Assembly: GCA_029261035.1 (NCBI GenBank)
Contig: JAJDCD010000023.1
Location: 38,501 to 102,500 of the forward strand
DNA from: Candidatus Omnitrophota bacterium
GTDB taxonomy: Bacteria; Omnitrophota; Omnitrophia; Omnitrophales; JACROU01
Length of the DNA stretch: 64,000 nucleotides
Direction: 5' to 3'
The notes beneath the pieces are model-generated. The model searched no databases, was not told where the DNA came from, and saw only the letters and a program-made list of their open reading frames with translations. This document shows positions 34 through 64,000 of the stretch, piece by piece. Every line of letters starts with the position of its first letter. The stretch's first letter is position 1. The translations under genes and the position numbers were made by a program.

Positions 34-3000
34 ATGACTATGACACAGATTAAAAAACCCATATCCATCATTTTAGCTTTATGCTTTTTGTTTACCTTAG
101 TACCGGCAGAGTCCGTCTACGCTAAGCATCCCCCTATTTACTTAAGTTCCGTTCCTGCGGTTCCAGAGGAGTGGGCTTCAGTAAAACGCTTTTCTCCTTC
201 CAAAGCCTCTATGGGTAGAATCTATTTATTAGAAGATGCTCATGGTTACATTGAAGCACAAGAACGCGTTTTGGATTTGCTTTCCTTCCTGGAAGAAAAA
301 ACCCAAGTAGAGCTGGTCGGTGTCGAAGGAAGCTCGGAAGATTTTAATCTATTACTCTTCAGAAGTTTTCCTAATCTAGAAAAGAAGAAAAGTTGGGTTC
401 GAAACAAAGTGAGGGAAGGAGAACTTTCTGGGGCTGATGGTGCAGCGATTCTGAGCAACCAGCCCATGAAATACTTTGGTATTGAAGATGAGCAACTGTA
501 TCAAAAAAACCTCAATCGTTACTTTGATGTTCAACAACAAAAACCAAATAAGCAAATAGAGGCATTCGAAGAAAAACTGGATAAACAGTTATCTAGTAAA
601 CTGTCAACCACACTTCTAGAAGTTTTGAATTTAGAAGAAAGACTGCTTCATCAAGACCAGGCTCCCTATGAATGGATGAAACAACTTTGTTCTTATCAAG
701 AAATACTTCAGGCACCTAAGAAGTTATCTCATATCTTTTCTCTCATCAAGCGTACTGAAAACGATGAAAACTTCCACGAACCACTTCCAAAACTCGAACC
801 AGAAATATTTTTAGAAATAAAGGATTACTTTACCGAATTAAAACAAAAACTGATTCGGAGTGAAGATGAGGCAAACTTACTTAAAAGAAGAGACCAGTTT
901 TTAAGACTAAAACAGTTGCGTGACTTAAAACTAACACGTCAAGAGTGGGAAAATTTAAACAAAGATTTTGATGAACTTAGGGAGTTTTTTGAGATTCAAC
1001 GTTCTTATTACCAAACAGCCATTAAACGAGAACGATCTTTTGTTAAAAGTGCTCTAAATCAAATGGAAAGCACAAAACAGAAGGAAACCATTCTTCATGT
1101 TGGGGGTTTTCATACCCAAGGCTTAAAAGAAGCATTTTTGAATAAGAACTATGAAGTTGTTCAAATAACGCCAAAGTGGAAAAAAGAAAGAGAAAGCACA
1201 TATCAAGAAAGAATGAATTTGATTGCAAGCAGCAAGAGTTCCTTGAAAGAACCTTCTCTTGTGGGTGCCAACCTTTTAAGAGGCAGGGTCGAAGGAGATG
1301 TTCTGCAAGATTGGCTGAGTCATAACAATGCGGTTGAGTGGGGAGTTCAACTTATTTTTTCTGCTTATCGTTTGAGACAACATAAAGAAAAAAAGCTATT
1401 TGATTTGTTGGACAGGCTCACGAATCATTTAGATTCCACCACACCACGCCACGAAGGTGTAGCGTCAGCGAAAAACGGTGGATCAGTTCTAAAAGGAACA
1501 GAAAAGCTAATGACTAATGGTTATGAGTTGACCGCTAGTTTAAGTGAAGATGAAAAGGTTGTTGGAGCCAGTTTAGGTGTGAAGTTTTCAGAGAAGAAGA
1601 TCTTGATTGGAAGAATAAGAACGGGTTTCAGACAAATTGAGGAAGGTAGAGTGGAAAGAGTGGAGATTGGAGATGTGAGTTTGATTGTGCAAAAGAAAAC
1701 AGGTAGAAGTAACCATTCTTTTCCAACTCCAGATGGAGATCGTGTTAGAAAGTCCGTTAATTTTATTGCTTATGAAAATTTAGATGTAATTGAACTTACT
1801 ATTGTTAAGGGTGTTGAAGGTCAAATTACTTTAGAATTTTCTCATCAGAAAAAAGGAGAGGAGCCGAAAGTATCCAAAGTCCTTTGGAATGGAAAAGAAT
1901 ACGAAAGGGTTCTCAATAATAAAGAAAAAGAAAAACAGGCATTAATCAAAAAAATTAGAAAAGCATATCAGCAGATTAAAAGCGGAGCAGCAGAGGTAGG
2001 GGTTGGCGATATTGAGCCTTTGGTAAATCTAAAGTTTGGTTGGTTGTATAGAACATTTCCAACACCGGACGGAGGCGCTTTGAAAGATAAAAAGCCAGGT
2101 TTTAACGGTAGGAATATTAAGTCAATGGACCTTAAATTAATTGCCGCCGAGAACGGAGAAATTATTTTTGAACTGAGCTATGTAACAAAGTTGGGTGAAA
2201 CGGAAAAAACAATAATGTATTGGAAAGAGAATAGTTTGTTATCTGAAAAAGACTACCACTTAAACAAAATTATGAATGGGTTTAAGGACTTGAAAGCAGG
2301 TAACGAGAGAGTGCTTGTTGGAGGTATTGATTTTTTTGTGCGTAAGAAGCAAGGGGTCTTGTCTCATCTATTTCCTTCACCCGATGGGGAGCCTTTAGGA
2401 GAAGGGACATCTATTAGAAGTGGTCCTGATATTAAAACTCTCACATTATCTCTGCTAAAAGACAAAGCGAATCAAATATTTTTGGAGCTTCACTATACAA
2501 AAGAAAACGATGAAGAAGGGGTTTCAACACTTGTTTGGCATAACGGTAAGTATGTTCTTCCCATAAAACTACTGGATCAAAAATTCAGACAAGGTTTTTC
2601 AGATATTGAAGCAGGAGGAAGTAAGTTTGATATTGGAGAAGTTAGCCCTTTTTTTAACAAGGATTATGGTGTGTCTAGGCATACATTTCCTACTCCTAAA
2701 GGAACTGTTAAGAGAAATAGCCTTGTTCGTTTAGAGAAAAATCTGGACAGAGTAGAGCTTAAGCTTTTGAAAGTTGATGATGGGAGCCTTGTTCTTGAAT
2801 TTGAATATGAATTAAAAGGAGGGGCAAAGGGAAGTAAAAAAGTTTTTTGGAATGGAAGCAAATATGAAGCGGATGTAGAAAAAGCGGTTCGAAAAGTTAA
2901 AGAAGCATATAAAAAAGTTTATGCAGGAGAGCAAAAAGTAGTTATCGGTGATGCTAGTTTGTTAGTAAGTAAAGAAAGAGCTCATTTATATAGGGTATTT

Positions 3001-6000
3001 CCTATGCCTGATGGAAATCCACGAAGAGGATCACGTAATATTGGGATGCAATTGAATGTTCAGGAAATTGCTCTTACAGTACATCGGGGCGAGAACGGAC
3101 ATCCTACACTGGAATTTTTGTATAAAAAAGATGAAGAGGAGAAGATTCTTAAAATTTATTGGAATGGAACTTTATTTGAGACGGAAAAAGAACGGCTTAT
3201 CAACAAAATAAGAGCAGGGTTTGAACAGGTTAAAACACAGGGTCAAGAAGTTAGTATTGGTGATGTGAGTCTTCTTGTGAGTAAAACATCAGGAGGATTA
3301 CAAAAGACCTTCCCAACTCCGGATGGAGGACAAATAGACAAGCCAAAAAGATTTGGAATTAGTGAAGATTTGGAGCTGATAGAACTTACTATCGAAAAAG
3401 ATGCTCAGAGCCAAAACATTTTATTGAGATTTGACGCTAGAAAAGTAGGTGAAACTCGTTGGAGTAAACCTGTTGTTTTAGTTTGGGATGGTACAAAATT
3501 TACAACAGATCGAACTAAAAACGAAGTAAATAAAGAGTTAGTCGTACAAAAAATCAAAAATGCATTTCTTGAACTCCAAAAAGAAAAGAAGAGCATTGAC
3601 ATAGGAAATGTTACCCAACTGGTTGGATCTAAAGTAGGATACCTCTATAACATTTTCCCTACTCCGGACGGAAATAAAGTGGGAAAGCCAACAACTGTAG
3701 GTCTTGGCGTTAACATTGAATCAATTAGCCTAAAAATAGAAAAAGACGAGGAGCTTGTTTTAATATTTACTGTAAAGGGAAAAAATAAAGAGACAAAAGC
3801 AGTTCGTGTTTATTGGAATGGTAAAAATTATGAAAAAGAATATAGCCGATTTTTAAGAAAAGTAAGAGAAGGGTTTCGTCTGATTTCAAAATCTGGTACG
3901 ACAGTAGTTGAATTAGGAGATGTGAGTCGAATTGTGAATACGCAAGGAGGAACTGTTTATAAAACCTTCCCTACGCCGGATGGAGCTACTATAGGAAAGA
4001 ATTTCTCTTTAGGGACTGGGGGAAAGGTTCAAGGTATTGCGTTAACCTTAAGAAAAGAAATCAAAACTGGGAGAATATTGTTAGAGTTTAATTATACAAA
4101 AATAAAAACAAAAAATGTTTTAAGAACACAGACTCTTTATTGGAATCCAAAAATTAAAACTTATTTGCCTTATGTCAAAGAAACCCAACAAGAAGTTTAT
4201 GAATTTAATCTCGAGGATGAGTTTGACGGAGCAAGTTTGGGGGATCAGTTTGATCAAAAGAAATTCGTGATTGAGCGAATTCAAAAAGCATATAAGCAAA
4301 TTGCAGACGGGAAACAAAAGGTAGATGTTGGAGATGTTAGTGCTCTCATTGATTTAAAAAAGGGTTTGTTTATTCCCCGATTTCCTGCCCCTGATGGAAG
4401 TAAGAAGCATGGAGCTCAGGCAGTTGGAATAGGACATCATGTGAAGAGGGTTTTATTAACTTTGTTGAAGGAAAATGAGACCTTAGTTTTTAAATTCACT
4501 TATTTAAAAGAGGGTAGTAGTCAGTACCAGGAAACAAAATTGTATTGGAATGGAACTAATTTTCTTCTGACACCGAAGTGGACTAGAGTGAAAATTTATA
4601 ACGCATTTGATGCTATTAAGCCAGGAGAAACTATAAGCATTGGAGATGTTAGCTCTGTTACGAACAAAGAAAGGGGCTGTTTGCTTAAGACCTTTCCTCT
4701 TCCTAATGGAGGGCGCTTAGGGAAAAACCAAACCATTCTGAGTCAAAAGAATAATGATGTTATTAGTTTGAAAGTAATAAAAGAAACGGAAGAATTAATA
4801 CTGGAATTTAGTTATTCCTCAAAAAATGACAATAAAGTGAGGCGAACTCGAATTTATTGGAATGGTTCAGCGTATGAATTAGAGCAGGACTGGAAGATTC
4901 GAAGAATAAAAGAAGCTTATAAAAAACTAAAAGAAGGGGAAGTTAAAGATATTGGAGATGTGTCTTCCGTTATTAATATAGAACGGGGGCTATTTCAAAG
5001 TGCTTTCCCCACCCCTGATGGTAGAAGGATAAAAAAAGTTTATACAGCAGCAATAGGAGCTGATTCCAAACAAGTTTGGATGAGGGTCAGAAAAGAAAAT
5101 GGAGATTTAACCTTAGAGCTTGATTACGTGAAAGAGAAAGAGAAAGGAACGCAAATTTTATATTGGAACGGAAAAAAATTTGAAACGGATTTTGAAAGAA
5201 AAATACGAAATATTCAGGAAGGTTTTCAGCGTGTTCTAGAAGATAAGACTTCAGTTTTTTCTGTTTTAAATATTGATTTTTTAGTGAATCAGAAGTATGG
5301 ATACTTTTTGCGAAGGTTTCCAACTCCGAATGGGCGCCAAATTGGAAATGCAAAATTGCCAGGATTTGGATTGAATGTCAGAAACATACAGTTAGATGTT
5401 ATTAAAGAAGATAGTGAAATGGTGCTTAGCTTTAATTATGACAAAGAAGGAAAAGATACAAAAAGTACATTGAAACTGTATTGGGACGGACATAAGTATT
5501 TGTCCGAAGAAGAAAAAAAAGGCGAAAATAACTCAAAAGAAGTTTTGATTAGAAAGATTCGTAAAGGGTATGAAGTATTACAAAAAGACGAAAAACAAAG
5601 CATAGAAATAGGGGATATCTCTTTGCTTGTTAGCATGCAAAGAGGAAAATTCAGATCTTTCTTTCCTACTCCCGAAGGAGGGAAATTAAAAACTATGGCT
5701 TCGTTATATACAGGAGTGCGTTTAGAATCTTTAACATTAAACCTTAAAAGAGAGGGTGAGGATATCGTTTTAGAGCTTAGCTTTAAAAGACAGGGAGATA
5801 CTTCTTTGAAAAACATCCAGCTTTATTGGAATGGCACTGAATTTGAACAGTTTAAGGGAAAAAGAAGCAAGATGAATGAAAAGCAGGATTTGTTAAAAAG
5901 GATAGCGGATGGATTGAAGAAGGTTCGCAAGCAAGAAGAAGACACGGTTGACATTGGAGATGTTAGCTCTGTAATGAATATGAAGTTTGGTATGATTGCT

Positions 6001-8568
6001 ATGGTTTTTCCTGCCCCGAATGGAGGGAAAGTAGGTTTTCAAAAAACATTAGGTATGGGAAAAGTAGAAGTAATTACTTTAGAGATAACAAGAGAGTCAG
6101 AAGAGTTGGTTTTGCTATTTAAATATGAGGGAAAAAATAAGAATGGAATGGCTAAACTTTATTGGACAGGTCAGGAGTATGTAACAGGGCAGCAAAGACA
6201 GATGGAATTTGTGCGAACCAGTTACGAAAAGCTTGAAAGAGGGGATGAAGTAAGAATTCAAATAGAAGAGCATGAGTTTTTAATTAATAAAAGACATGGG
6301 TTTTTACAGGGAAGTTTTCCTACTCCTGATGGAAAAGAGATAGGAGAAATGTTGTTTCCATCTATGGGAGAAAATGTGGAGTATTTAGATTTTTTTCTAA
6401 TAAAAGAAGAAAGTACGATTTTACTTGAATTCCACTCACGTCAAAAAGGAAAAAAAGAAACGATTATTTCTAGACTTTATTGGAATGGAACAGAGTTTGA
6501 AAGTGATAAAGATATTGAGGTTGGAAAAATCAAAGAGGGGTTTGAATTTCTCTCAAGGGGAATACAGCAAAGGTTTAATGTTGGTCCCTTAAATGAATTG
6601 ATTTCTAAAGGATATGGGAAGCTTCAAGCTGATTTTCCCACCCCTGATGGCAATAAAGTAGGTAGGGTGAAGCCTATGAGCTTAGGACCGAATTTTAAAG
6701 AAATTAGTTTAGAAATATTATTAGAAGAAGGGCAAATAGTTTTGTTTTTTACTTATACAGGCGAAGGAGAAAAAGAGCAAAGGCAAGGAAAAATGTATTG
6801 GGTCCACGATAAGTATTTAACTGAAAAGGAGATGCAAAAACATCGATTAGCTGAAGCGGTTAAAGCGGTTTATAACGGAAGTTTAGATCAATATGAAGTT
6901 GAGGATGTAGTCCTTTATGTGAATAAATCAGTGGGACGACTTAACAGAAGCTTCCCAACTCCCGAAGATGGGGTCGTTGGTAAAATGAAAACAATCGGCA
7001 TAGGAAAGCCGAATGCAGAAGTGAAATTTACAGTTAAAAGAGATGTAAAAACTCAAAAGTTACAACTAGTCTTCAAGTACAGGAAAGAAGGAGAGGTGGG
7101 CTTTAGAGAGGGTCCTGTAATCTTAACTTGGAATGGAACAGAATATGAAACGCCCAAAGAGATAGAGTTGCGTTTAATTAGAGAGGGTTTCCAAACGATT
7201 CAGAATGGAAATCTGAAATCTGTAAGAGTAGGAGAGCTCAACGAATTAGTCTCAAAAGAATATGGAAAACTACAGGGAGATTTTCCTACTCCTGACGGAA
7301 ATAAGATTAAAAGAATAAAATCCTTACGGATGGGCCCTAAACATAGCTATATTGCTTTAGAAATTACCAAAGAAGAAGGTGGGATAGTTTTAATTTTTGA
7401 TTACATCTTGCATGGGACAGCGGAAATAAAAAAAGGGAAGCTTTATTGGATTGATGGCACTTATTTAACTGAAAAAGAGTTTCAAAAGCATAGATTAATT
7501 AAAGCGATTGATGACGTTAATAACGGAGCTCTTTCTTTTGCTGAAATAACAAAACTGGATTATTTTTTAAATTTTAATTATGGGGTTTTGAACGAGACAT
7601 TCCCAACTCCGATAGGAACGAAAATAGGAAAACAACAATCACTTGGAATAGGGGGTCTTCTGGAATCAGTGAAACTAATTGTAGAAAAGGAAATAAGGAC
7701 TCAAAGATTGTTGCTAAAGTTTATTTATAAACGGAAGGGAGAAGCTGATTATCATCCTGAACCCGTCATTTTGTTTTGGAATAAAAAAACAAACAAGTAT
7801 GAAAAATATGTTCGCGAAGTTCAACAAGATGTTTATGAATTTGATCCCAATGAGGAGTTTGAGGGAATGAGTTTGGGAACTCGGTTAGAACGTTACCCCA
7901 AACCAATTCAGGAGGCTTTAAGGCTTGTTAACTTTTTAGATCGAGAAAATATAAATTTAGATTTTTTAGGGCAATATGTGAAACAAATTAGAACGACTGT
8001 AGCGGATCCGTCTGTTTATCAAATTATGGATGTGGTTACGTTTAAAGATCGGATTCGAGATGAAGAGTCTTTGTTAAAGATGGTTCGTATGATTGAGGAT
8101 GGCGGAAAAATTGAAGTGGCTTATAGTGAAGAGGAGCGAGAAGAAGTTCGAGGTTTCTTGAAAAAAGGTGGCTTGCTTCATGGATCATTTAAACATTATT
8201 TCAGAGATGTTTTTGTCCCATACTCAGAATTAGGAAAATCGAATCTGTCTAATTTGATCAAGGTTGTGTTGGTTGATGAGAAGAATATGGGAAGATTGAA
8301 TCAGCTAGAAGAAGACTTTTTTAAGGTGGGTTATGAGAGTCGGTGGTTGGATTATATTCCTGGAATGACAAGCATGCTTTCCAATATCAGCATTGAGGCG
8401 GCTCGAATGAAACGAGAAGGAGTGCCAGATCAATTGGCCCAATATGTTCAAAGTTTTTATGAGACGGGAACAAGCTTCTCTCTTCAGGGAGGAGTCTTGT
8501 TTTTGGATGTGGTTGAAATGTTGAAGACGAGTATTGTAAGGGATCGAATGATTGCGAGGGCGGCGTAG
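34..8568 (+). CDS. Giant secreted tandem-repeat protein (2,844 aa); N-terminal signal peptide, ~400-aa N-domain shared with the 25701..30785 protein, 19 x ~140-aa repeats, unique ~250-aa C-terminal domain
   Basis: Uninterrupted 8.5-kb ORF. N-terminus MTMTQIKKPISIILALCFLFTLVPAESVYA is signal-peptide-like. The motifs FPTPDG (and variants FPSPDG/FPAPNG/FPTPEG) and YWNG recur 19 times at ~140-aa spacing. A terminator-like palindrome follows the stop codon. Confidence 0.85.
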   Translation: MTMTQIKKPISIILALCFLFTLVPAESVYAKHPPIYLSSVPAVPEEWASVKRFSPSKASMGRIYLLEDAHGYIEAQERVLDLLSFLEEKTQVELVGVEGSSEDFNLLLFRSFPNLEKKKSWVRNKVREGELSGADGAAILSNQPMKYFGIEDEQLYQKNLNRYFDVQQQKPNKQIEAFEEKLDKQLSSKLSTTLLEVLNLEERLLHQDQAPYEWMKQLCSYQEILQAPKKLSHIFSLIKRTENDENFHEPLPKLEPEIFLEIKDYFTELKQKLIRSEDEANLLKRRDQFLRLKQLRDLKLTRQEWENLNKDFDELREFFEIQRSYYQTAIKRERSFVKSALNQMESTKQKETILHVGGFHTQGLKEAFLNKNYEVVQITPKWKKERESTYQERMNLIASSKSSLKEPSLVGANLLRGRVEGDVLQDWLSHNNAVEWGVQLIFSAYRLRQHKEKKLFDLLDRLTNHLDSTTPRHEGVASAKNGGSVLKGTEKLMTNGYELTASLSEDEKVVGASLGVKFSEKKILIGRIRTGFRQIEEGRVERVEIGDVSLIVQKKTGRSNHSFPTPDGDRVRKSVNFIAYENLDVIELTIVKGVEGQITLEFSHQKKGEEPKVSKVLWNGKEYERVLNNKEKEKQALIKKIRKAYQQIKSGAAEVGVGDIEPLVNLKFGWLYRTFPTPDGGALKDKKPGFNGRNIKSMDLKLIAAENGEIIFELSYVTKLGETEKTIMYWKENSLLSEKDYHLNKIMNGFKDLKAGNERVLVGGIDFFVRKKQGVLSHLFPSPDGEPLGEGTSIRSGPDIKTLTLSLLKDKANQIFLELHYTKENDEEGVSTLVWHNGKYVLPIKLLDQKFRQGFSDIEAGGSKFDIGEVSPFFNKDYGVSRHTFPTPKGTVKRNSLVRLEKNLDRVELKLLKVDDGSLVLEFEYELKGGAKGSKKVFWNGSKYEADVEKAVRKVKEAYKKVYAGEQKVVIGDASLLVSKERAHLYRVFPMPDGNPRRGSRNIGMQLNVQEIALTVHRGENGHPTLEFLYKKDEEEKILKIYWNGTLFETEKERLINKIRAGFEQVKTQGQEVSIGDVSLLVSKTSGGLQKTFPTPDGGQIDKPKRFGISEDLELIELTIEKDAQSQNILLRFDARKVGETRWSKPVVLVWDGTKFTTDRTKNEVNKELVVQKIKNAFLELQKEKKSIDIGNVTQLVGSKVGYLYNIFPTPDGNKVGKPTTVGLGVNIESISLKIEKDEELVLIFTVKGKNKETKAVRVYWNGKNYEKEYSRFLRKVREGFRLISKSGTTVVELGDVSRIVNTQGGTVYKTFPTPDGATIGKNFSLGTGGKVQGIALTLRKEIKTGRILLEFNYTKIKTKNVLRTQTLYWNPKIKTYLPYVKETQQEVYEFNLEDEFDGASLGDQFDQKKFVIERIQKAYKQIADGKQKVDVGDVSALIDLKKGLFIPRFPAPDGSKKHGAQAVGIGHHVKRVLLTLLKENETLVFKFTYLKEGSSQYQETKLYWNGTNFLLTPKWTRVKIYNAFDAIKPGETISIGDVSSVTNKERGCLLKTFPLPNGGRLGKNQTILSQKNNDVISLKVIKETEELILEFSYSSKNDNKVRRTRIYWNGSAYELEQDWKIRRIKEAYKKLKEGEVKDIGDVSSVINIERGLFQSAFPTPDGRRIKKVYTAAIGADSKQVWMRVRKENGDLTLELDYVKEKEKGTQILYWNGKKFETDFERKIRNIQEGFQRVLEDKTSVFSVLNIDFLVNQKYGYFLRRFPTPNGRQIGNAKLPGFGLNVRNIQLDVIKEDSEMVLSFNYDKEGKDTKSTLKLYWDGHKYLSEEEKKGENNSKEVLIRKIRKGYEVLQKDEKQSIEIGDISLLVSMQRGKFRSFFPTPEGGKLKTMASLYTGVRLESLTLNLKREGEDIVLELSFKRQGDTSLKNIQLYWNGTEFEQFKGKRSKMNEKQDLLKRIADGLKKVRKQEEDTVDIGDVSSVMNMKFGMIAMVFPAPNGGKVGFQKTLGMGKVEVITLEITRESEELVLLFKYEGKNKNGMAKLYWTGQEYVTGQQRQMEFVRTSYEKLERGDEVRIQIEEHEFLINKRHGFLQGSFPTPDGKEIGEMLFPSMGENVEYLDFFLIKEESTILLEFHSRQKGKKETIISRLYWNGTEFESDKDIEVGKIKEGFEFLSRGIQQRFNVGPLNELISKGYGKLQADFPTPDGNKVGRVKPMSLGPNFKEISLEILLEEGQIVLFFTYTGEGEKEQRQGKMYWVHDKYLTEKEMQKHRLAEAVKAVYNGSLDQYEVEDVVLYVNKSVGRLNRSFPTPEDGVVGKMKTIGIGKPNAEVKFTVKRDVKTQKLQLVFKYRKEGEVGFREGPVILTWNGTEYETPKEIELRLIREGFQTIQNGNLKSVRVGELNELVSKEYGKLQGDFPTPDGNKIKRIKSLRMGPKHSYIALEITKEEGGIVLIFDYILHGTAEIKKGKLYWIDGTYLTEKEFQKHRLIKAIDDVNNGALSFAEITKLDYFLNFNYGVLNETFPTPIGTKIGKQQSLGIGGLLESVKLIVEKEIRTQRLLLKFIYKRKGEADYHPEPVILFWNKKTNKYEKYVREVQQDVYEFDPNEEFEGMSLGTRLERYPKPIQEALRLVNFLDRENINLDFLGQYVKQIRTTVADPSVYQIMDVVTFKDRIRDEESLLKMVRMIEDGGKIEVAYSEEEREEVRGFLKKGGLLHGSFKHYFRDVFVPYSELGKSNLSNLIKVVLVDEKNMGRLNQLEEDFFKVGYESRWLDYIPGMTSMLSNISIEAARMKREGVPDQLAQYVQSFYETGTSFSLQGGVLFLDVVEMLKTSIVRDRMIARAA
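1590..7800 (+). repeat. Array of 19 tandem ~140-aa protein-coding repeats (consensus landmarks IGDVS..LV...FPTPDG...L.L...LEF.Y.K......LYWNG..YE)
   Basis: Read directly from the translation. A higher-order duplication is visible: the block ending TQQEVYEFNLEDEFDGASLG (~nt 4180-4250) recurs as VQQDVYEFDPNEEFEGMSLG (~nt 7820-7880). Repeats 16-17 and 18-19 are near-duplicates of each other. Confidence 0.8.
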
Positions 8569-11371: not shown

Positions 11372-11722
11372 ATGAATGAAGCTGTACTGATATTTACTCT
11401 TATTTTCTCTGCTTTGATTGTAGGAACCTTACTGGGATTACATCTTTTATTGAGTCCAAAGAACCCTAACTCAGTAAAGTCCGCTCCTTTTGAGTGCGGA
11501 AAGGACCCAATTTCTGAGCCTAAAGGGCGATTATCGGTACGATTTTATATTGTTGCGATGCTTTTTCTTATTTTTGATATCGAACTTGTGTTTCTTTATC
11601 CCTGGGCTGTTTTGTTTAGAGATTTAGGGGTTGTTGGATTTTTGGACATGCTTGTCTTTATTGTTATTTTGATGACAGGCTTTATTTATGCCTGGAAAAA
11701 GGGAGCTTTAAAATGGAGCTAA
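11372..11722 (+). CDS. nuoA: NADH-quinone oxidoreductase subunit A
   Basis: 116 aa, 3 TM segments, FECG...P motif typical of NuoA/ND3. Confidence 0.9.
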   Translation: MNEAVLIFTLIFSALIVGTLLGLHLLLSPKNPNSVKSAPFECGKDPISEPKGRLSVRFYIVAMLFLIFDIELVFLYPWAVLFRDLGVVGFLDMLVFIVILMTGFIYAWKKGALKWS

Positions 11723-12237
11723 CTGCCCCACAAAAAGAAAATATTCAAAAAATTGAACACTCTAACTTGTTTACTCCTGGTTTTTTTAGCTCAAAGGTAT
11801 CTGAGGTTGTGGGTTGGGCAAGAAAGAATTCGATCTTTCAGTTTCCAATGGTAACGGCTTGTTGTGGAATGGAATACATGTCTGTTGCTTGTTCTCATTA
11901 TGATATCGATCGTTTTGGAGCGGGTTTTCCTCGTTTTAGTCCGCGTCAATCCGATGTTCTCTTTGTGGTTGGAACCATTAGTCATAAGATGGCGCCTGTG
12001 ATGAAACGTATTTATGAACAGATGACAGAACCTAAGTGGGTTGTTGCCTTTGGCGTGTGTACTTGTACCGGGGGTTTTTATGATAATTATGCAACGGTTC
12101 AGGGGATCGATACGATTATTCCTGTCGATGTGTATATCCCTGGATGTCCTCCAAGACCAGAGACTGTGATTGATGGACTTATTAAACTTCAAGAAAAAAT
12201 TGAACACTCTGGTTTCGAATCCAGACCTGGAAAGTAA
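11713..12237 (+). CDS. nuoB: NADH-quinone oxidoreductase subunit B
   Basis: CCGMEYM and GCPP Fe-S ligand motifs. Overlaps the nuoA stop codon. Confidence 0.92.
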   Translation: MELTAPQKENIQKIEHSNLFTPGFFSSKVSEVVGWARKNSIFQFPMVTACCGMEYMSVACSHYDIDRFGAGFPRFSPRQSDVLFVVGTISHKMAPVMKRIYEQMTEPKWVVAFGVCTCTGGFYDNYATVQGIDTIIPVDVYIPGCPPRPETVIDGLIKLQEKIEHSGFESRPGK

Positions 12238-12245
12238 TCTAAAAA

Positions 12246-12728: not shown

Positions 12729-12763
12729 GTACGGAAGTCTGATAGTTATAGAAAAAGGAAAAA

Positions 12764-14137: not shown

Positions 14138-14163
14138 ATGTGGGGTTTGAAAGTTGCGTCGTC

Positions 14164-14259: not shown

Positions 14260-14338
14260 TCCTCCTAGAGAACCAAACGTCTCGTTTTTTATTGGTTTAG
14301 GGCGAGGTGCTTCGCGCAATATGTTTTGCTAATAGCTA

Positions 14339-14410: not shown

Positions 14411-14437
14411 CTAAAAAGCTATAGACAAAGGAATATA

Positions 14438-14902: not shown

Positions 14903-14912
14903 GTTTTAATGG

Positions 14913-14937: not shown

Positions 14938-14966
14938 AGACTAAGTCTAGAAGGCAACTATTAATT

Positions 14967-25700: not shown

Positions 25701-28700
25701 ATGAGGTTTTTTTTAGTATTTCAGCAACAATTGAGAGTCCTAACCTATTTCCTTATTCTTACCTTCGGACTCGACTCTATTTCCCTGGCCCATGCTCAAT
25801 CTGTTACTGCATCCGTGAACGTTGCACCGAGCATTGGGTTGGGGGATTATTCTTCTTTTCCAGATAATCTTGGAAATATCATTCAAAAAAACGAAATATC
25901 TAAAAATGCCTTTAATCTGATTCACTTACAAGACGCCCACGCTAATCCTGAAGCCCAAAAAAAAATTGCGGAACTCATTCGATACTTTTCAGAAGAACAA
26001 GGGTATAACACTGTTTTTGTTGAAGGAGCGTATGGGAGATTGGATAAACGTTATATTGAATTTACAGATGATTTTTCATTAAATCAAAAAATTGCAGAGC
26101 GCCTCACTGCTTTGGGAGAGTTTACAGCGCCGGACGTTTATTTATCAAAAAATAAAAAAAGCACCCTTCAATTTTTAGGAATCGAAGACCCCCAACTTTA
26201 CAGAAAAAATGTAACGCATTTAAAAAAGATATACCAATCTAGAGAAGAAATTGAAAGTTGGATTGAAGCAAAAAAATTAATATTGGATCGAAAAAACTCT
26301 CGTCTAAAAAACAAAAACCTTTTCTATTTATTTAAAACATTTTTAGAACTTTCTGAAAAAACGAACAATTTCAGCCGTCATTTAGTTCAATTAAATACGA
26401 TCTCCAAAAGAGAGTTGGGAAGAGACCTTCAGGATGCGAAAGAACAAATAGAATATCCTAATATTGTTCGATTTTTAAGACTCTTTAAAGAGCAAAAGCT
26501 GGACCGCGAAAAAGCTCGTGTGGAGTGGGAGGAAATAGTAAAAACAATCTCGAAACAAAAGCAGTTCTTAAAGAGAGCACCTTCTTTTAAAGAACTCAAC
26601 GATCTAAATGTTAGGGTTCTTCTAGAAACCTTAGTGGAGGAGCAGGGGGTTGATTTTAAAGGGTTTCCCATTTTTTCAAAGTACGCAAAGGCTCTTATTT
26701 ATCAACAAGAAATGGATGGGGCGGCTTTGTTTGCAGAGCTTAACACGTGGCTCTTATCATTAATCAATCATTTTAGTTTGGAAGCTCAAAGCAAGAATCT
26801 TTTCAAAGAAATTCAGCTTTTTATTTTAATTAAAAAACTTTTGAAGCTCGAGTTAAAAAGAGAAGAGTGGGGTCTGATTAAGGATGAAGAAATCAAAGAT
26901 AAAGAAGTGCAAAACTTAATTGATGAAGCGCTTCTTTTTTATAAAGCTGCTGAGAAAAGAGAACAACCCTTTTTGGAACAAATTCAGAATCAGATCAAAA
27001 ATAAAAAAATAAAAAAAGCAATTTTACTTACGGGAGGATTTCATACTCCTGCGTTATTGAAACATGCAAATGAAGATGGCTGGAATTCTGTGGTTATTGC
27101 TCCTCAGCTTACTTCAGCAGTGGATCAAGATGATTATTTCAAAAATTTTATGGGAAGAGACCCTAAAGACATTGATGTCTCACAAGTAGTAACTCAGCCT
27201 TATTCTATTTCTCCAGAAACGGCAGTTGCGCTTGGTGTCGATCTTGCTAATAGACAGCAATTAGTAAACACTATCACTAGAGAGTTTGTGAAGGCGAGTA
27301 GCCTTGGGGAAAGGAAAGAAATCCTTCCGGGGTTTTTTGAAGAACGCCCTCTTTTTATTCCTAAAGACGGTCGTATTTTACGTTCCAATGAGAGACTTTT
27401 ACTTCAAGCAGGAGACCACTATTTTTATGTTGATGAAAAAAGAGTTGTTCAGGTGGATTCGACTGGGAAAAAAATAAAGCAAATTAAAATTGCAAATAAG
27501 CCTTTAAAACGATGGGAACTCTCTGAAGGAAAGAAGATGGTTTCTCGATCGCATTGGGCGTCTAATGAGAAAGAATTTATATGGTTGAAACACTATTTTC
27601 AATGGCAGAGATTGGCTAAAAAGGTTTATTTGAACGACCCGGTACTTATTGGACAAGGAGTTACATCTAAAGTTTACTCAATGAACGTTGCTATGCCTCA
27701 AGACGGTGTTGTTAGAACCTTAATAGGCACAGAATTTGTGAAGAAAAAAGACAAGACGATAGGCAGAAAAAGGGATTATGGTTTAGTGGGATATGAGGTT
27801 CAAAAAGGAGATTTCCAAGATGAGCCTGTTCCTGTGGGGGCAGTTAGAAAGTTGATTATAAAGACAAGCTCATTTAGCACAAAACGCTCTATTGCTTATC
27901 AAGAACTGATTCGCGATCGATTTGCGAGTACTTTTATTGCAAAGACTGCAGAGTTGCCTTCGAGGCACCCTGTAGCGCATGAGTTAGGATTAGAGCAGTT
28001 TGGCCGCGAACGCATCTTGCTTCAAGAGCCTTTGATTCCTTTAAGCCAAATTTTAAGAGAAGCTCGTGGCTATGAGAGACAATATTGGGCTAATCAATTT
28101 GTTCGGAGAGTGGAGGATTTTTGGAAGAGAGGCTACGTAGACTTAGATGCCAGGACAGATAATTGGGGCGTTAACAGCGAGGGTAAGCTTGTGTTTCATG
28201 ACTTTGATTTCGTTATGAGCTTATCGGAGATGGATAAGGGAATTAAGGGTAAAAGAGAAGACAAGTTAACCGTGTTGAGTCGTAAAATTCAGTTTTTTGC
28301 TAATTTTATTATTAATAATGTGTCATTTTTATATTCTTTAGATCCTGAGTTGGCTAAGCACTTTTATGAGCGTGTTGTTCATATTTCTTTTGAGTTAGAA
28401 AATAAGCAGAAGCTTTATTTGTTTAATGATATTTTGTCTAACGCGGCCGGGACATCTAAGCAATTAAAAAACTGGGAACAGCATTGGAAACGTATTGAGG
28501 TATTTGCTAAGCAGCTGATTCAAGCACATGAAGAACAAGCTTCTAAAGAAAAGCGAAAAGAAATAGTGAAAGATGTTTTCAATTTTTTAAGAGCTTCAGT
28601 GAAGAAAAGGCAAGCATTGATGACTCAGGTTTTACGTTTAGTAGCTCCGGCTTCACAAAGCGAACTTAAAGGAGATCAAATTAGAAGGCAAAAAGGGCGC

Positions 28701-30785
28701 ATCATTAAAAAATGGGCAGAGAAATATTCAGAGCCCTTCGCTTCGAGAGATCATGATTTTGAAAAATTTATAGAGCTAACAACAAAGTTAGTTACAGAAG
28801 GCTTTAGTGGCTTTGTGGATGGGGATCGAGCAGCAATTAGAGACATTATTGACAGTCGTCCTGTGCAATATGAAGGTGTTAGAGAGGTTGTTGTTGGTGA
28901 GATTGTGAGAATAATGAATGGCATCAACTCTTCTACATTAAATGCATTTTCCAGAAAACAAATAAATAATTTTTTCAGTTTTTTGGTTGCTAGAGATTTT
29001 TTCAAAAGACATTTTACTGCAGGAGAATCATTCGATGGCGTTCAAGAAATATATATAGGTTCTAAAGCGCCTCATTTTCAATTTCAGATAGCATCCAACC
29101 AATTGCAACCCTACCACTTTGTCGTTTTGCGTGTCCCTTTTGGAGATAGAGGAAAACATCGAGTGGTGATTTTTGACATGAGCGTTTTGAATGGCGAAAA
29201 AAGCCAAACTCAATTTAGAGGTATTTCTGAACAGGCTTATTCTAGCTTGTTATGGCAACCCTTCCGAGTAGATGGACGCGTTGTGGAAATGAGTTTGAAT
29301 ATAGATTCGTCTCAACAGCAGACGATGGAATTGCCGGAGGATGAAATTGGAGGAACTCGGCTACCTTATTTCTCTCAGACCATGATTGGAAGACTCGTTG
29401 ATTGGATGGGGGATATACAGGCTTTTGAAGCTCAGTTTGCAGACACTCAAGTTGTTCCACATGCTCCTCGAGAGGTTCCTGTTTTTACAAAACCAAGGCA
29501 TTCCAGATATAGACCCAGACATCATAGAATGGGGTCTCGGTCTATTCGAGCTAGAAAGAGAAGAAATATACAATTAGATCGGAATGATATAGAAACTAAT
29601 GTTAGACCAGGAAACTCTGCGAACTCGAGAACGTATGTTGATGCCACTCAAGCACCTAAAACGCGAGCAAAGTCAGAGGTTGTGAAAAAAAGACGTCGTT
29701 TAGGGTTGGGAAGACGGCCAGTAGAATTGCCGCCGTTGTCACCCAGAACTTCTTTTTCACCACCGATTCCAACGTCTGTGCCTAATCCGTTAAAACGATT
29801 TAAACCTATGTCGTTACCGCAAGGAGGTCTAACGTCATTTAATCGCCCTCCAGCTAGACAAAACCCAACTCCTCAGGGAGAAGGGCCGAACGTTGCGGAT
29901 CTTAGGAATCAGCATAAACGTATGTTTGGAAAAAGGCTTTCTATTTGGGATCATAGGATGCCTCCTCAGCAAGAGAAAAGACGCGGATTGAGGGGAAATA
30001 GTTTAGGCTCTATTGTTTCTGTGGCTAATCTTGTTGCAGATAAAATTGTTGCTCCTCAAGACTTAGAAAATGAAGTCATTGTATCAGCTGTTTTGAGACA
30101 GGAAGTATCTTTGGAACAACTCTTTAAACTTAGAGAGCTCTTTGATCAGGTGGGAGGAGATGGTTTTTATAAGAAATTGTTTGGCGCCAACTCCAACTTA
30201 AGTGTTGTTCTGATGCAATCTTCTCAAGTGACGGATGCGTTGGCCGCGGGGATAGATTGGGCTTTGGTGAATCAACCGAATTTAATTCTTCGAATTATTA
30301 ATGACGGAACGCAAAATGAGCAGATTGAACAATTGAAGCGCAAGGTGAAAGATTTAAATGTAAATCATAAAGCAGAGAGATTTAAAATCGTGATGTCTGA
30401 TTTGAGCGTTGTTGATACAATTAATTATATTCTCCGAGACAAAGGGAATCTCTATAAAGTGGCTCATACTTTAGATTCCGGTTTGGCAAGAATAGATGTA
30501 ACCAAGCGAACTGTTGTTTTGGCTAAGGAGCAAACCTTAGAAGATATTGATAAAGGGCTTTCCTCTAAAGTTATATTCATTCCTTCTGAAGTTGAAGGCT
30601 CAGCTCTTTATCAATTTGGAATTTCTACGGCTTTAGCAGCAAATGAGGGACGATTAACAGCAGACCTAAAAGAACATCTACGAATCTCCAAATCTGGACA
30701 TTTTGTTTTCCAGGATTTTTCTCGAATCCTTCATGAGCTGATGACAGCACACCAGGCTTTAAAAGCTATTCTACAAGCAGCCTAG
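25701..30785 (+). CDS. Giant secreted multidomain protein (1,694 aa): signal peptide, N-domain paralogous to the 34..8568 protein, kinase-like domain, basic/Pro-rich low-complexity tract, C-terminal domain
   Basis: Signal-peptide-like N-terminus (…LILTFGLDSISLAHAQS). LIHLQDAHANPEAQ / VFVEG / GGFHTPALL align with LLEDAHGYIEAQ / VGVEG / GGFHTQGL in the first giant protein. See findings for the kinase-like motifs. Confidence 0.85.
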   Translation: MRFFLVFQQQLRVLTYFLILTFGLDSISLAHAQSVTASVNVAPSIGLGDYSSFPDNLGNIIQKNEISKNAFNLIHLQDAHANPEAQKKIAELIRYFSEEQGYNTVFVEGAYGRLDKRYIEFTDDFSLNQKIAERLTALGEFTAPDVYLSKNKKSTLQFLGIEDPQLYRKNVTHLKKIYQSREEIESWIEAKKLILDRKNSRLKNKNLFYLFKTFLELSEKTNNFSRHLVQLNTISKRELGRDLQDAKEQIEYPNIVRFLRLFKEQKLDREKARVEWEEIVKTISKQKQFLKRAPSFKELNDLNVRVLLETLVEEQGVDFKGFPIFSKYAKALIYQQEMDGAALFAELNTWLLSLINHFSLEAQSKNLFKEIQLFILIKKLLKLELKREEWGLIKDEEIKDKEVQNLIDEALLFYKAAEKREQPFLEQIQNQIKNKKIKKAILLTGGFHTPALLKHANEDGWNSVVIAPQLTSAVDQDDYFKNFMGRDPKDIDVSQVVTQPYSISPETAVALGVDLANRQQLVNTITREFVKASSLGERKEILPGFFEERPLFIPKDGRILRSNERLLLQAGDHYFYVDEKRVVQVDSTGKKIKQIKIANKPLKRWELSEGKKMVSRSHWASNEKEFIWLKHYFQWQRLAKKVYLNDPVLIGQGVTSKVYSMNVAMPQDGVVRTLIGTEFVKKKDKTIGRKRDYGLVGYEVQKGDFQDEPVPVGAVRKLIIKTSSFSTKRSIAYQELIRDRFASTFIAKTAELPSRHPVAHELGLEQFGRERILLQEPLIPLSQILREARGYERQYWANQFVRRVEDFWKRGYVDLDARTDNWGVNSEGKLVFHDFDFVMSLSEMDKGIKGKREDKLTVLSRKIQFFANFIINNVSFLYSLDPELAKHFYERVVHISFELENKQKLYLFNDILSNAAGTSKQLKNWEQHWKRIEVFAKQLIQAHEEQASKEKRKEIVKDVFNFLRASVKKRQALMTQVLRLVAPASQSELKGDQIRRQKGRIIKKWAEKYSEPFASRDHDFEKFIELTTKLVTEGFSGFVDGDRAAIRDIIDSRPVQYEGVREVVVGEIVRIMNGINSSTLNAFSRKQINNFFSFLVARDFFKRHFTAGESFDGVQEIYIGSKAPHFQFQIASNQLQPYHFVVLRVPFGDRGKHRVVIFDMSVLNGEKSQTQFRGISEQAYSSLLWQPFRVDGRVVEMSLNIDSSQQQTMELPEDEIGGTRLPYFSQTMIGRLVDWMGDIQAFEAQFADTQVVPHAPREVPVFTKPRHSRYRPRHHRMGSRSIRARKRRNIQLDRNDIETNVRPGNSANSRTYVDATQAPKTRAKSEVVKKRRRLGLGRRPVELPPLSPRTSFSPPIPTSVPNPLKRFKPMSLPQGGLTSFNRPPARQNPTPQGEGPNVADLRNQHKRMFGKRLSIWDHRMPPQQEKRRGLRGNSLGSIVSVANLVADKIVAPQDLENEVIVSAVLRQEVSLEQLFKLRELFDQVGGDGFYKKLFGANSNLSVVLMQSSQVTDALAAGIDWALVNQPNLILRIINDGTQNEQIEQLKRKVKDLNVNHKAERFKIVMSDLSVVDTINYILRDKGNLYKVAHTLDSGLARIDVTKRTVVLAKEQTLEDIDKGLSSKVIFIPSEVEGSALYQFGISTALAANEGRLTADLKEHLRISKSGHFVFQDFSRILHELMTAHQALKAILQAA
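27600..28330 (+). other. Atypical protein-kinase-like domain inside the 25701..30785 protein
   Basis: Glycine-rich loop IGQGVTSKVYS, downstream VKKK lysines, catalytic-loop-like VDLDARTDNWGV (D-x4-N spacing as in HRDLKPEN), and HDFDF in the DFG position 14 residues later. Confidence 0.5.
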
Positions 30786-61315: not shown

Positions 61316-64000
61316 TTAGGCCGCAACCTTAAGAGCTTGTTGAGCTTGGTGATATACGTAGAGATTTTGGATAAATTCTTGGGTCATCTGCCAAAGACCA
61401 TTTTGATTTTTAAGACCCAAAGAATGATAAAGCTGTTTTCGAGTTCTCTCATCTTGAACTAAAGCAATGCTTGTCATTAATTCCAATAGATCTGAAGTTC
61501 TAATACCGCTCTGTTCTACCAACTCTGAGTTCCAACGAACGCGTTCATAACTCTTCTTAATTTTAGGAAGATTCTGTCGGTCTGTTAAAGATTGAAAACT
61601 AATCCCGTTAGAAATTTCTTTCAATTCTTCCTTTACCTCGGAAACAAGAAAGTGTTGTTTGGCAATTACCTCAACCCCTTCTAAAGCCAACACTTGTTTT
61701 AACCCCTTCAGTTCTTCTGTTTCTTGCTGAAGTACAATAATTTTACTCCCTCGACGTCCTTTAAAAATAGAAACTAATTCTTCCTGTGCTACTTCATTTA
61801 ACATGGCTTCGCTTAAAATCCAAGCGATAGGCTCCAACTCTTTCTGTCCTAAACTCTGCGCTTTAACAATTACACCTTTAACACTATTAAGCGAAATAGC
61901 AAATTCAGATACTTGTCCAGGACCAACCTGTTTTATGTTAGATTGAATAAAGTCAAATAGAGTCTTATCCAATTGAACCTTATCTTGCTTTAACCATTGC
62001 TTTACAAGTCCTTCAGAAAAAAGATTTTTTGCGAATTCAGGAATTAACGAAATAACTTCACTATAAATTGCTTTTGTTTTTAACTTATACAGATTCTCTA
62101 TTGCAAGCTCTGATGTCTCTTCGTTAATAACGATAGCTGATGAAGATACGCTGCTAGGATCTAATCCCTTTGAAAATAATTTCATAACATACTGTCCAAC
62201 AGCATTTTGGAATACAGAAGCGTTTAGCCAAGTTTGAACATCTTCTAATGACAGGTAAGGACGCACATCTTCCGGCAATCTTTTTTCTATACCACGAAAT
62301 AACATCTCACTTATTGTTCCATGCTGTTCTTTTAATCGATACACTACCCCATGGTCTGAAGAAGACTGCATCATCGGCATTATCTTTTTAATTTCAGCCA
62401 TTTTGTCTCCAGAATACAATGCTGTTGGAACAAGATGACTCGCTTCTATTTCTACCCCTCTTTGCTTAAGCGCTTGAATAACCCAATTGTTTATAGGAGG
62501 CTTTGGAGTTGTTGTTTGTAAAATGCTAATAAAAACACTTCCACCAAAAGGACGCTTAACTCGAGCGATCAAATTCGACAAATCTTTCATCTCATCTATC
62601 GTTGAAAGTCCCCTCTCGGTATGTCCAATAAGAAAGTCTCTTCTTACCATAGACAAATAGTTTTCTGTAGACATTAAATCTACGGCCCATACATGATCAT
62701 ATGATTCATCTACAAGAATCTGACTGCTGACTTCAAATACACTTTTTTGTATCAAAGTAAAGCTACCTCCAGACTCTTGAATCTTATCTTTTACCTGTTG
62801 ATACAATGCATTTAATTGCGGCGCATAAACCGTTGAGGGTTCCACAACAGTCACCTGAGCACCCATCATTGCTGAAATTAATGAAAACACCGTATGTCCT
62901 GGCCCTATCTCCAACAACCGATCTCCAGGCTGAACGGAGACAGAATTAAAAATTTTCTCTACTTCTCTTTCAGACAAAAAGAACCCTGATTTGTACTTAA
63001 AACTTTCAACACCTGTTAAAACGCTCATTGCACTAGGAGCTGCTTTACTTGCTTTCTCAAAATCAAGGTTTTCTTTTAAATATTTAAAAACTTCTTTAAC
63101 ATCTCCTGGTTCGTTCCTGTCTAGTTTTTGCGACATTTCAGGAAAAGAAACACCTAAGCTAGCTGCTTTTACAGAACTAGCCTCTTCTACCAACCTCGAA
63201 AAAACATTATCGGTATTCAAAGAAATACTTCCTGGTAAAACTTTTGGTAAACCTGCATACGCATTCTTAATACTTATCACCTCAGAAAGCCAAGGCAAGT
63301 CCCTTTTAGCAACTACCCAATCGGCAAGACGAACAATTTTTTTTACAGACTCCAAGCTTCTCCCTTCTCGGGCTAGCTTTTCCGCAAATAGCAGCTCTGC
63401 TTGCGAGCCCAAACTTTGAGCATCAATACGATTAAAATGAAAACCACTTCCGTTATCCAACATATTGGTTCGCCAATCAATTTGACCACTTTCATCTAAC
63501 AAATTCCGATCTCCAAGCACCACTCTTACAGCAGACAAATGAGTTCCATGCCCAAATAGCACAACAACTTTTTCGTTGTCTTGATAAGTATCATTTATTT
63601 TTTCCATCAATTTCTTTGCTCGGTCTAAAACTTTTAAGAAACTCTCTCCCCTAGGAAATTGAATTCGCGCATTGGCAGCATAACGATACATGTATTCAAG
63701 CTCAAGTTCTTGAGAATCAAAGTTGGCAACTGATTTTTGATCTGCTGTACCAAAGCTCATTTCATTCAACAAGGGTTCTTCAACAACTTCCAGATTAGTT
63801 CCCGTCCGTTCTTGAAAATGCTGAATAAAAGCATCTGCAGTCTCCTTTGAACGTCCCAACTCGCTTGTCATAACAACAACCTGTTTCCCATCAAGTACTA
63901 ATTCTTCAAGTTGAGCATATAATGCTTCAGCTGCCAGCTTCGCCTGCAACTGCCCCTTTTCATTTAACTGGTTATCCGGCTCGTCTACATTCCCCTGGAA
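61316..64000 (-). CDS. Large multidomain protein (histidine phosphatase/PGAM-like N-domain + class I SAM methyltransferase + C-terminal region); N-terminus runs off the window
   Basis: …QAKLAAEALYA…VVLFGHGTHL is a histidine-phosphatase-like pattern. LLEIGPGHTVFSLISAMMGAQVTVVEPS is a methyltransferase motif I/II-like glycine-rich patch. The ORF is open to nt 64000. Confidence 0.7.
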   Translation of the reverse strand, partial: FQGNVDEPDNQLNEKGQLQAKLAAEALYAQLEELVLDGKQVVVMTSELGRSKETADAFIQHFQERTGTNLEVVEEPLLNEMSFGTADQKSVANFDSQELELEYMYRYAANARIQFPRGESFLKVLDRAKKLMEKINDTYQDNEKVVVLFGHGTHLSAVRVVLGDRNLLDESGQIDWRTNMLDNGSGFHFNRIDAQSLGSQAELLFAEKLAREGRSLESVKKIVRLADWVVAKRDLPWLSEVISIKNAYAGLPKVLPGSISLNTDNVFSRLVEEASSVKAASLGVSFPEMSQKLDRNEPGDVKEVFKYLKENLDFEKASKAAPSAMSVLTGVESFKYKSGFFLSEREVEKIFNSVSVQPGDRLLEIGPGHTVFSLISAMMGAQVTVVEPSTVYAPQLNALYQQVKDKIQESGGSFTLIQKSVFEVSSQILVDESYDHVWAVDLMSTENYLSMVRRDFLIGHTERGLSTIDEMKDLSNLIARVKRPFGGSVFISILQTTTPKPPINNWVIQALKQRGVEIEASHLVPTALYSGDKMAEIKKIMPMMQSSSDHGVVYRLKEQHGTISEMLFRGIEKRLPEDVRPYLSLEDVQTWLNASVFQNAVGQYVMKLFSKGLDPSSVSSSAIVINEETSELAIENLYKLKTKAIYSEVISLIPEFAKNLFSEGLVKQWLKQDKVQLDKTLFDFIQSNIKQVGPGQVSEFAISLNSVKGVIVKAQSLGQKELEPIAWILSEAMLNEVAQEELVSIFKGRRGSKIIVLQQETEELKGLKQVLALEGVEVIAKQHFLVSEVKEELKEISNGISFQSLTDRQNLPKIKKSYERVRWNSELVEQSGIRTSDLLELMTSIALVQDERTRKQLYHSLGLKNQNGLWQMTQEFIQNLYVYHQAQQALKVAA

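Follow-up and report, generated by a model that had tools for sequence, protein, structure and literature searches.

Long modular proteins with an N-terminal signal peptide or anchor, and with either one dominant repeat or many unrelated enzyme domains per chain, are known from the phylum Omnitrophota. West-Roberts et al. 2023 proposed that the giant proteins of these bacteria are cleaved, but no cleavage points were known, which blocked further analysis (10.1101/2023.11.21.568195). Nielsen & Lui 2026 described long proteins of the Omnitrophota as 'multi-enzyme clusters' and 'tandem-repeat scaffolds' (10.64898/2026.06.07.730766). The phylum is noted for genes of extreme length, whose products may act as single chains or as cut pieces. 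Here, we describe an open reading frame (ORF) at the beginning of a 64,000-nucleotide (nt) stretch of Candidatus Omnitrophota DNA (contig JAJDCD010000023.1, positions 38,501 to 102,500; called the window in the following). We consider its product to be an exported, membrane-tethered modular precursor or scaffold that is probably cut at the junctions between its modules, and we give this reading an even chance. The protein is a small, tractable member of its family, and the explicit grammar of the family makes cleavage directly testable.

The ORF can be divided into an N-terminal hydrophobic segment, a domain with a predicted hydrolase fold (N-domain), two arrays of one repeat and a C-terminal domain (C-domain), with a short motif between the modules (aa, amino acids; pLDDT, predicted local distance difference test):

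34..8568, plus strand: complete ORF, 2,844 codons and stop (ORF scan and translation)
34..123, plus strand: signal peptide or signal anchor, aa 1-30, MTMTQIKKPISIILALCFLFTLVPAESVYA (Kyte-Doolittle, model)
151..1233, plus strand: TIKI/ChaN/erythromycin-esterase-fold domain, aa ~40-400, with a ~200-aa helical insertion (predicted structure)
235-243, 325-327 and 1102-1113, plus strand: putative catalytic D68-x-H70, E98 and G357-G-F-H360 (alignment)
1234..1563, plus strand: poorly predicted region, aa 401-510, pLDDT <50 throughout, not conserved in homologues
1564..1578, plus strand: junction 1, G-A-S-L-G, aa 511-515, 3 residues before repeat 1
1579..4227, plus strand: array A, repeats 1-8, aa 516-1398; repeat 8 is of the cap type, with the tail NPKIKTYLPYVKETQQEVYEFNLEDEFD (nt 4144-4227)
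4228..4242, plus strand: junction 2, G-A-S-L-G, aa 1399-1403, between the repeat 8 cap and repeat 9
4243..7863, plus strand: array B, repeats 9-19, aa 1404-2610; repeat 19 is of the cap type, with the tail NKKTNKYEKYVREVQQDVYEFDPNEEFE (nt 7780-7863)
7864..7878, plus strand: junction 3, G-M-S-L-G, aa 2611-2615, between the repeat 19 cap and the C-domain
7879..8565, plus strand: C-domain, aa 2616-2844 (229 aa), ending in ...DRMIARAA

With the described Omnitrophota proteins the ORF has in common the phylum, the N-terminal signal peptide or anchor, the dominant repeat and the ancient divergence of its repeats, which form no tandems at the nucleotide level; post-translational cleavage has been proposed for those proteins, too. 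The published giants have at least 10-30 thousand amino acids (kaa), Pfam repeats (TSP3, NHL, WD, HEAT, dockerin) and C39/S8 peptidase domains, whereas the ORF encodes 2.8 kaa and a repeat without a Pfam model. Its 2,844 aa are below the 10,000-aa threshold of Nielsen & Lui, but it does have the signal or transmembrane (TM) segment and the one dominant repeat. Neither West-Roberts 2023 nor Nielsen & Lui 2026 mentions a TIKI-fold N-domain, junction motifs or the [AS]A end described below; the terms cleavage, polyprotein and linker are absent from the latter (10.64898/2026.06.07.730766), and the strings of the junction motifs were found in no relevant paper of a literature search. Thus, long modular anchored proteins of the Omnitrophota are known; new with respect to the searchable papers are the repeat domain, the TIKI-fold head and the junctions together with the [AS]A end.

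The motif G[AM]SLG falls exactly at the boundaries of the four modules N-domain, array A, array B and C-domain. Three other SLG triplets of the ORF are inside repeats, at a different, homologous loop position. In the paralogue on the same contig (P0002), A-S-S-L-G is found at segment boundaries. A six-frame translation of the 64-kb window contains the strict motif [AG][SQA]SLG six times, and all six copies are in three ORFs that belong to one family. The original prediction had regarded the '...SLG' as the end of a block terminator; it had overlooked that this is a general module-junction motif, and also the TIKI/ChaN-fold N-domain and the conserved C-domain.

With high confidence in its architecture and family assignment, we place the ORF in a family of modular proteins of 1.7-7.5 kaa that was previously undescribed as such. 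Its grammar is an N-terminal anchor followed by a QDAH...EG...GGFH domain, a variable cargo, a C-terminus [AS]A and one motif at every boundary. The ORF has all of these: the anchor and the QDAH...EG...GGFH domain, G[AM]SLG at the boundaries and the end ...IARAA. In most members the cargo consists of ordinary enzymes. The motif itself varies: R-A-E-V-R is present in 13 copies in P0003 and R-S-E-[LMIV]-R in 7-12 copies per protein in P0007, P0013, P0058, P0021 and P0027, and there are recurrent [AQ]-S-L-G (P0006, P0044, P0023, P0020), S-G-F-G-A (P0045) and A-M-[VL]-G (P0039 and the locus L022), the last as D-[SQ]-A-M-L-G three times in P0039. In P0003 and P0007, distances of 130-700 aa separate most neighbouring R[AS]E[VLIM]R sites; Pfam domains contain no such site, and every Pfam enzyme domain is bracketed by a pair of them. 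SLG, RSELR and GFGA occupy the same position across lineages, either immediately in front of the first repeat or up to ~6 residues ahead of it; P0044 has a lone repeat with SSLG on both sides.

The residues in front of the motif resemble the end of the proteins. Positions -2 and -1 are enriched in A/G/S for SLG, RSELR and GFG, matching the [AS]A C-terminus of the family. The C-domain of the ORF, which has no match in Pfam or in the PDB (noise only in the PDB sequence search), shares 29% identity with the C-terminus of P0020 across 238 aligned positions (E 3e-35), and a terminal helix with the [AS]A end is common across the family. This end was seen in 14 of the 19 proteins of the whole-protein search (query, P0002 and 17 matches to the N-domain only) and, among the 22 proteins with the repeat that reach 2 kaa or more, likewise in 14. 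In the window only three of 38 ORFs have it, and these are exactly the three family members.

The second of these members (25701..30785, plus strand; 1,694 aa) has the anchor and the QDAH/EG/GGFH domain, no Pfam match, the junctions VKASSLG (aa 534) and RGNSLG (aa 1434), and the end ...AILQAA. In L039, a syntenic relative with 88% identity in LeuC, the site of this gene between the NADH-dehydrogenase cluster and a flavin reductase spans only ~360 bp; therefore, the gene is accessory, and such genes are gained or lost quickly. The third member (61316..63949, minus strand; 877 aa, TTG start) lacks the N-domain. It is composed of a His_Phos_1 module, DAQSLG, a segment of 80 aa, KAASLG, a methyltransferase-like module, KAQSLG and a C-domain ending in ...ALKVAA, and looks like a small 'polyprotein' of ordinary enzymes.

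The codons of the junctions are informative as well. At all eight boundary SLG sites of the window (including nt 1570-1572, 4234-4236 and 7870-7872) the serine is encoded by AGY (AGT/AGC), compared with an AGY share of 33% among all Ser codons of the ORFs in the window (p ~1e-4); non-boundary SLG triplets use TCN in three of four cases. In P0007, 11 of 12 junctions have TCN for Ser and 11 of 12 have CGN for the first Arg. The codon class of the junction is frozen within a genome, and the AGY pattern is compatible with a common origin of the junctions and with selection that maintains Ser. Third codon positions are free in the RSE[LM]R and SLG sites, with a GAGGTG bias only in P0003. Since synonymous codons vary within the motif, the constraint is at the protein level. 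A nucleotide element (Shine-Dalgarno sequence with internal start, slippery site or recombination site) was rejected on the same ground, that synonymous positions vary freely. An unusual genetic code that would fuse operons into giant ORFs was rejected as well, because the standard code already leaves the frame open and the junction types have no single codon in common. Self-cleavage through an N-to-O acyl shift and phosphorylation of the junctions were dismissed because RAEVR and GFGA junctions have no Ser, Thr or Cys. A separate observation concerns aa 2008-2082 of P0002, where a repeat ends after the FP.P.G loop at ASSLG and a new repeat follows directly. This suggests that junctions are insertable, or modules recombinable, inside a domain.

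What are the junctions for? We infer, tentatively and with slightly more doubt than trust, that they are endoproteolytic sites, because the pattern is like that of viral polyproteins, a putative hydrolase of a superfamily that includes proteases is present, the residues before the junction resemble the C-terminus, and West-Roberts et al. independently suggest processing. With the same reserve, the lineage-specific motifs A-[ASQ]-S-L-G, [AS]-R-S-E-L-R, R-A-E-V-R, [AS]-G-F-G-A and A-M-[LV]-G could be processing sites, and the proteins true bacterial polyproteins. According to this model, the protein would be exported in a Sec-dependent manner with its N-terminus held at the cytoplasmic membrane, and endoproteolysis would occur at the junctions, just after the small residues preceding SLG. 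The protease would be the TIKI-like domain of the protein itself or a genome-encoded enzyme acting in trans; array A (~100 kDa), array B (~140 kDa) and the C-domain would be released. Alternatively, a genome-encoded protease would read C-termini and work stepwise from the C-terminal end. If true, exported precursors would be divided behind two small residues to give free modules, each product ending like [AS]A; most members would release enzymes in this way, and the present ORF two rods of 100-140 kDa made of a new domain. The polyprotein reading would then supply the missing cleavage points of the Omnitrophota giant proteins, whichever protease acts. The grammar also tells where giant proteins can be divided into modules before their structures are predicted.

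Two known systems invite comparison. MARTX toxins carry cargo modules on a giant secreted chain, and these are freed by a built-in protease that cuts short linkers after Leu. The likeness is a functional analogy only; RRSP, a structural neighbour of the N-domain, is a MARTX effector. MARTX toxins differ in their glycine-rich RTX repeats and C80 protease domain, both without a match in the Pfam scan of the ORF, in their C-terminal type I secretion signal as opposed to the Sec-type N-terminus here, and in their junction motifs. Viral polyproteins would be the analogy for a short motif at every boundary that varies with the lineage but keeps its position, as co-evolution of a protease and its sites produces. 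In contrast, the present family is chromosomal and bacterial, and its cleavage is a proposal.

Residues 1-30 contain the sole Kyte-Doolittle window above 1.6 in the whole protein. Their layout, KK, a hydrophobic core and VYA|K with a helix modelled at aa 4-25, is signal-peptide-like, in line with the signal peptide of the original prediction. Positive charges before the sole hydrophobic segment are also present in P0002 and P0003. This one hydrophobic segment at the N-terminus, preceded by positive charges, likewise agrees with the earlier view of a very large exported or anchored repeat protein.

The domain that follows is predicted to have an alpha/beta fold with a core of parallel beta-sheet and flanking helices, the fold of the superfamily that includes TIKI, ChaN and erythromycin esterase (Ere). 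ChaN, TIKI and PrgY are usually extracytoplasmic. The helical insertion follows the third core strand and precedes the GGFH strand. In an alignment of 14 sequences H70, E98, G99, E151, Y326, R332, G357-G-F-H360, P380 and Y390 are invariant, and in the model H70, E98 and H360 are located at C-terminal strand ends in the core sheet. In RRSP, E3900-x-H3902, E3930 and H4030, a set of two His and two Glu, are essential for peptide-bond cleavage, and the paper on its structure names the same set of proteins as structural relatives (PMC6254334). The spacing of 28 between H70 and E98 is that between H3902 and E3930, with the equivalence judged by motif order and strand positions. A search of PDB sequences with an N-domain profile gave noise only. 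The whole-protein search found 17 distant homologues that match only aa ~5-410; all have 1.7-4.7 kaa with unrelated enzyme Pfams downstream, and two are named Candidatus Omnitrophica. Since no curated sequence model of the superfamily matches, we call the N-domain a distant, new branch of the TIKI/ChaN/Ere fold with a plausible active site. It differs from TIKI, TraB-PrgY-GumN, ChaN, erythromycin esterase and RRSP in the lack of a Pfam match, the insertion and an Asp as first acid; furthermore, it is fused to kilobases of cargo. In summary, it is a putative hydrolase that appears to keep the catalytic His/Glu(Asp) residues and may be a protease. Of the ~400-aa N-domain that was originally described, a conserved domain of ~360 aa stands, but the region before the first repeat comprises 518 aa, including ~115 aa that are poorly predicted.

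Several points weigh against a precursor that is cut at its junctions. Instead, the junction could act as a hinge, serve for docking or mark a folding boundary. The type of motif tracks the genome and not the subfamily of the N-domain: the ORF product (P0001), P0002 and the 25701 ORF, all from the same genome, all use SLG, and their N-domains are only 21-25% identical, whereas the nearest relative of P0002 uses RSELR. This, and the lack of an N-domain in the 877-aa member, which does have junctions, suggest that the factor that reads the motif is not each protein's own N-domain. The idea that the N-domain determines the type of motif was accordingly given up, its phylogeny not following the motif, and the odds for a protease acting in trans, which might bind C-termini, are no lower than those for the protein's own N-domain. 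About half of the proteins with the N-domain showed no obvious recurring motif in a simple k-mer scan. The cargo of relatives includes enzymes of cytoplasmic type (sigma-70, radical SAM, helicases), a poor fit to a simple periplasmic role. At the first acid position there is Asp (D68) in place of Glu, two homologues deviate there, and the Pfam and NCBIfam models for TIKI, ChaN and Ere (TraB_PrgY_gumN, Cofac_haem_bdg, Erythro_esteras) gave no match at E up to 10. We infer export with an N-in anchor or signal peptide from sequence features alone, and the modelled part of the arrays comprises two repeats only (R10-R11).

The strongest competitor, though an unlikely one in our view, is an unprocessed single-chain surface fibre or adhesin of ~320 kDa, tethered at its N-terminus, in which the arrays serve as spacer or binding stalk and the junctions as flexible hinges or docking sites for partner proteins. 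Leaving aside the Ig fold, this corresponds to the original prediction, whose host interaction is conceivable. The signal-peptide-like N-terminus without any further hydrophobic segment would suit such a fibre, as would the cap repeats and the rigid-looking interface between repeats described below. Moreover, 94% of the Omnitrophota 'tandem-repeat scaffold' class of Nielsen & Lui have a signal peptide or TM helices (10.64898/2026.06.07.730766). However, a fibre leaves unexplained why relatives have one and the same short motif between enzyme modules that are unrelated, why it is swapped wholesale between lineages at homologous positions, why the residues before it mimic the C-terminus of the family and why a putative hydrolase domain with an apparently intact catalytic set is at the head of the protein.

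The arrays were inspected in the same ORF. FP.P occurs exactly 19 times (aa 563-2523), each time followed after ~55 aa by [LIVMF][YVLFT]W, so that the 19 repeats of the original prediction are borne out. FPTP is present 14 times where the composition predicts ~0.01; therefore, the repeat is real. The period is 103-115 aa (median about 105) and not the ~140 aa first given; a value of 138 aa is reached only in the interval of repeat 8, to which the terminator is appended. In the alignment of the 19 copies F, P, P, W and two Gly are invariant or nearly so, and the other consensus positions are mostly hydrophobic or Gly with few polar ones (K, D, S, N, E), which fits a structural module rather than an enzyme.

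Pairwise identity of the repeats is 20-39% at the amino acid level, except for R16/R18 (50%) and R17/R19 (42%). These are indeed the most similar pairs, but with nucleotide identities of only 57% and 53% they are not the recent near-duplicate that had been assumed; R16-17/R18-19 is an old two-unit duplication. Codon-aligned nucleotide identity is 47% on average with a peak of 57%, and Tandem Repeats Finder (TRF) detected no array with a period of ~315 nt in the gene, only low-copy repeats of 6-14 nt. For both reasons the duplications are ancient and collapse of the array is of no concern. The terminator QQ[ED]VYEF..[ED]EF[DE]G[AM]SLG does recur after repeat 8 (aa 1385-1403) and repeat 19 (aa 2597-2615), as originally noted, but the duplication of the whole array that had been read from it does not hold: R1/R9 to R7/R15 are 26-30% identical, which is background. 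Array B as a block duplicate of array A was consequently discarded; the identity matrix has no diagonal, and only the terminal cap repeat recurs. The cap type has the consensus ...LLEF.Y.K.GE..F..EPV.L.WNP.T..YE.YV...QQ.VYEFD...EGFSLG and is kept in both arrays, in P0002 and twice in P0020.

The repeat was modelled with AlphaFold2 on R10-R11 (nt 4561-5184), using an alignment of 24 repeat pairs from the ORF and its paralogue. The model of the two repeats has a pLDDT of 94.1 and a predicted template modelling score (pTM) of 0.87; the high pTM indicates a fixed repeat-repeat interface. In the predicted order, a 14-16-residue helix comes first and the short strand IGDVS second; the F-P-x-P-x-G loop, long and in part extended, is next, and a three-strand meander that ends in YWNG completes the repeat. 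Apparently, the repeat is a new alpha+beta domain of ~105 aa with one helix, a four-strand antiparallel sheet, the F-P-x-P loop and the Trp. We suppose, again with some reluctance, that the arrays may be stiff, capped, rod-like scaffolds. Tandem adhesins of the Ig-like or beta-sandwich type (BIg, FN3, cadherin-like) are alike in that ~100-aa domains are arranged head-to-tail in an exported bacterial protein. They differ in their sandwich fold, whereas an alpha+beta fold with an N-terminal helix is predicted here, and the BIg, FN3 and cadherin models gave no Pfam match; an Ig-like fold, which had been proposed for checking, thus finds no backing. That the repeat is outside the named families was correct: neither Pfam nor NCBIfam offers a model of it, and PDB sequences searched with its profile gave noise only. 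One Pfam match, to DUF2278 (20 bits, cutoff 25), was inside one repeat and below the cutoff and was set aside as spurious. Confidently modelled, without a family name and without a structural neighbour, the repeat is a clean candidate for a new domain family.

The repeat is rare: its profile matched only 61 cluster representatives at E <=0.001 among 1.84 billion proteins. Their lengths span 143-7,503 aa, 22 reach 2,000 aa or more, and many of the shorter proteins resemble fragments from contig ends; among the 61, the copy number is highest in the 2,844-aa ORF. A homologue search with the alignment of the 19 repeats as query scored nothing, and scans of metagenome contigs with the whole protein and with the cap-repeat alignment revealed no relatives. 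A scan with a degenerate DNA pattern of 185,579 GTDB species representatives, which do not include the source genome, gave 36 loci, 35 by chance and one real. The latter, L022 (DATDQB010000010.1), is from a Candidatus Omnitrophota; the 8-kb locus is one open frame of 2,666 codons without stop, with four FPLPNG repeats and the junction variant [DQAR]-A-M-V-G three times.

The basic nature of the arrays raises the question whether they bind DNA, RNA or another polyanion together with the helicase-type modules next to arrays in relatives. The isoelectric point (pI) is 9.4 for array A and 9.1 for array B; Cys is lacking in A, and the arrays are essentially Cys-free. In P0021, P0024 and P0027 arrays are followed by regions that resemble SNF2/DEAD-type helicases, as judged by eye without a domain search. 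Yet the protein is predicted to be exported and the consensus of the repeat has no conserved basic surface positions, and we regard polyanion binding as improbable. Less probable still is a tandem array of protease inhibitors like multicystatin, to which the cystatin-like helix-on-sheet could point and which would regulate the TIKI-like hydrolase or foreign proteases. An artefact, whether a chimeric assembly, collapse of the array or a pseudogene in decay, is very improbable: nothing was found in its favour, 8.5 kb are open without a stop codon, repeats of at most 57% nucleotide identity without a TRF array make mis-assembly impossible, the core residues are kept in 19 of 19 copies, and the paralogue and a distant homologue share the order of cap, junction and C-domain. 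An identical protein (P0001) is recorded in an NCBI assembly, on a contig of 630,564 bp, and 34..8568 (+) is a single uninterrupted frame.

The gene belongs, as far as sequence comparison tells, to an Omnitrophota genome and not to Chlamydiae. Nine of the 11 named best matches of the LeuC encoded in the window (76-80% identity) are from Candidatus Omnitrophica/Omnitrophota; the two others are labelled Verrucomicrobiae and Candidatus Eisenbacteria, all of these being best matches and not a phylogeny. The named homologues of the N-domain are Omnitrophica, too. Together with the genes for complex I, LeuCD, GltB (glutamate synthase), FabF and MutY in the window, the LeuC matches speak against the chlamydial or intracellular context that had been suggested. 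Genes for ThyX and cytochrome c biogenesis are also present in the window. Secretion-system genes flanking the ORF were not found within the window; the region upstream of the ORF is outside it.

Three further observations were made in the window. The complex I genes form two convergent clusters (11372-19678, plus strand; 19881-25487, minus strand) and not one operon, an arrangement also present in the related genome L039. The ThyX-like ORF at 31492-33063 (minus strand) has 523 aa, ~2x the usual length, and two stretches match the thyX model. It looks internally duplicated or fused; L039 has the same form (524 aa). At ~54000-56000 the GC skew switches, being positive from 1 to ~54 kb and negative from 56 kb; cumulative GC skew has its maximum near 54-55 kb, where the orientation of the ORFs turns to the minus strand. 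This region may be a replication terminus or origin.

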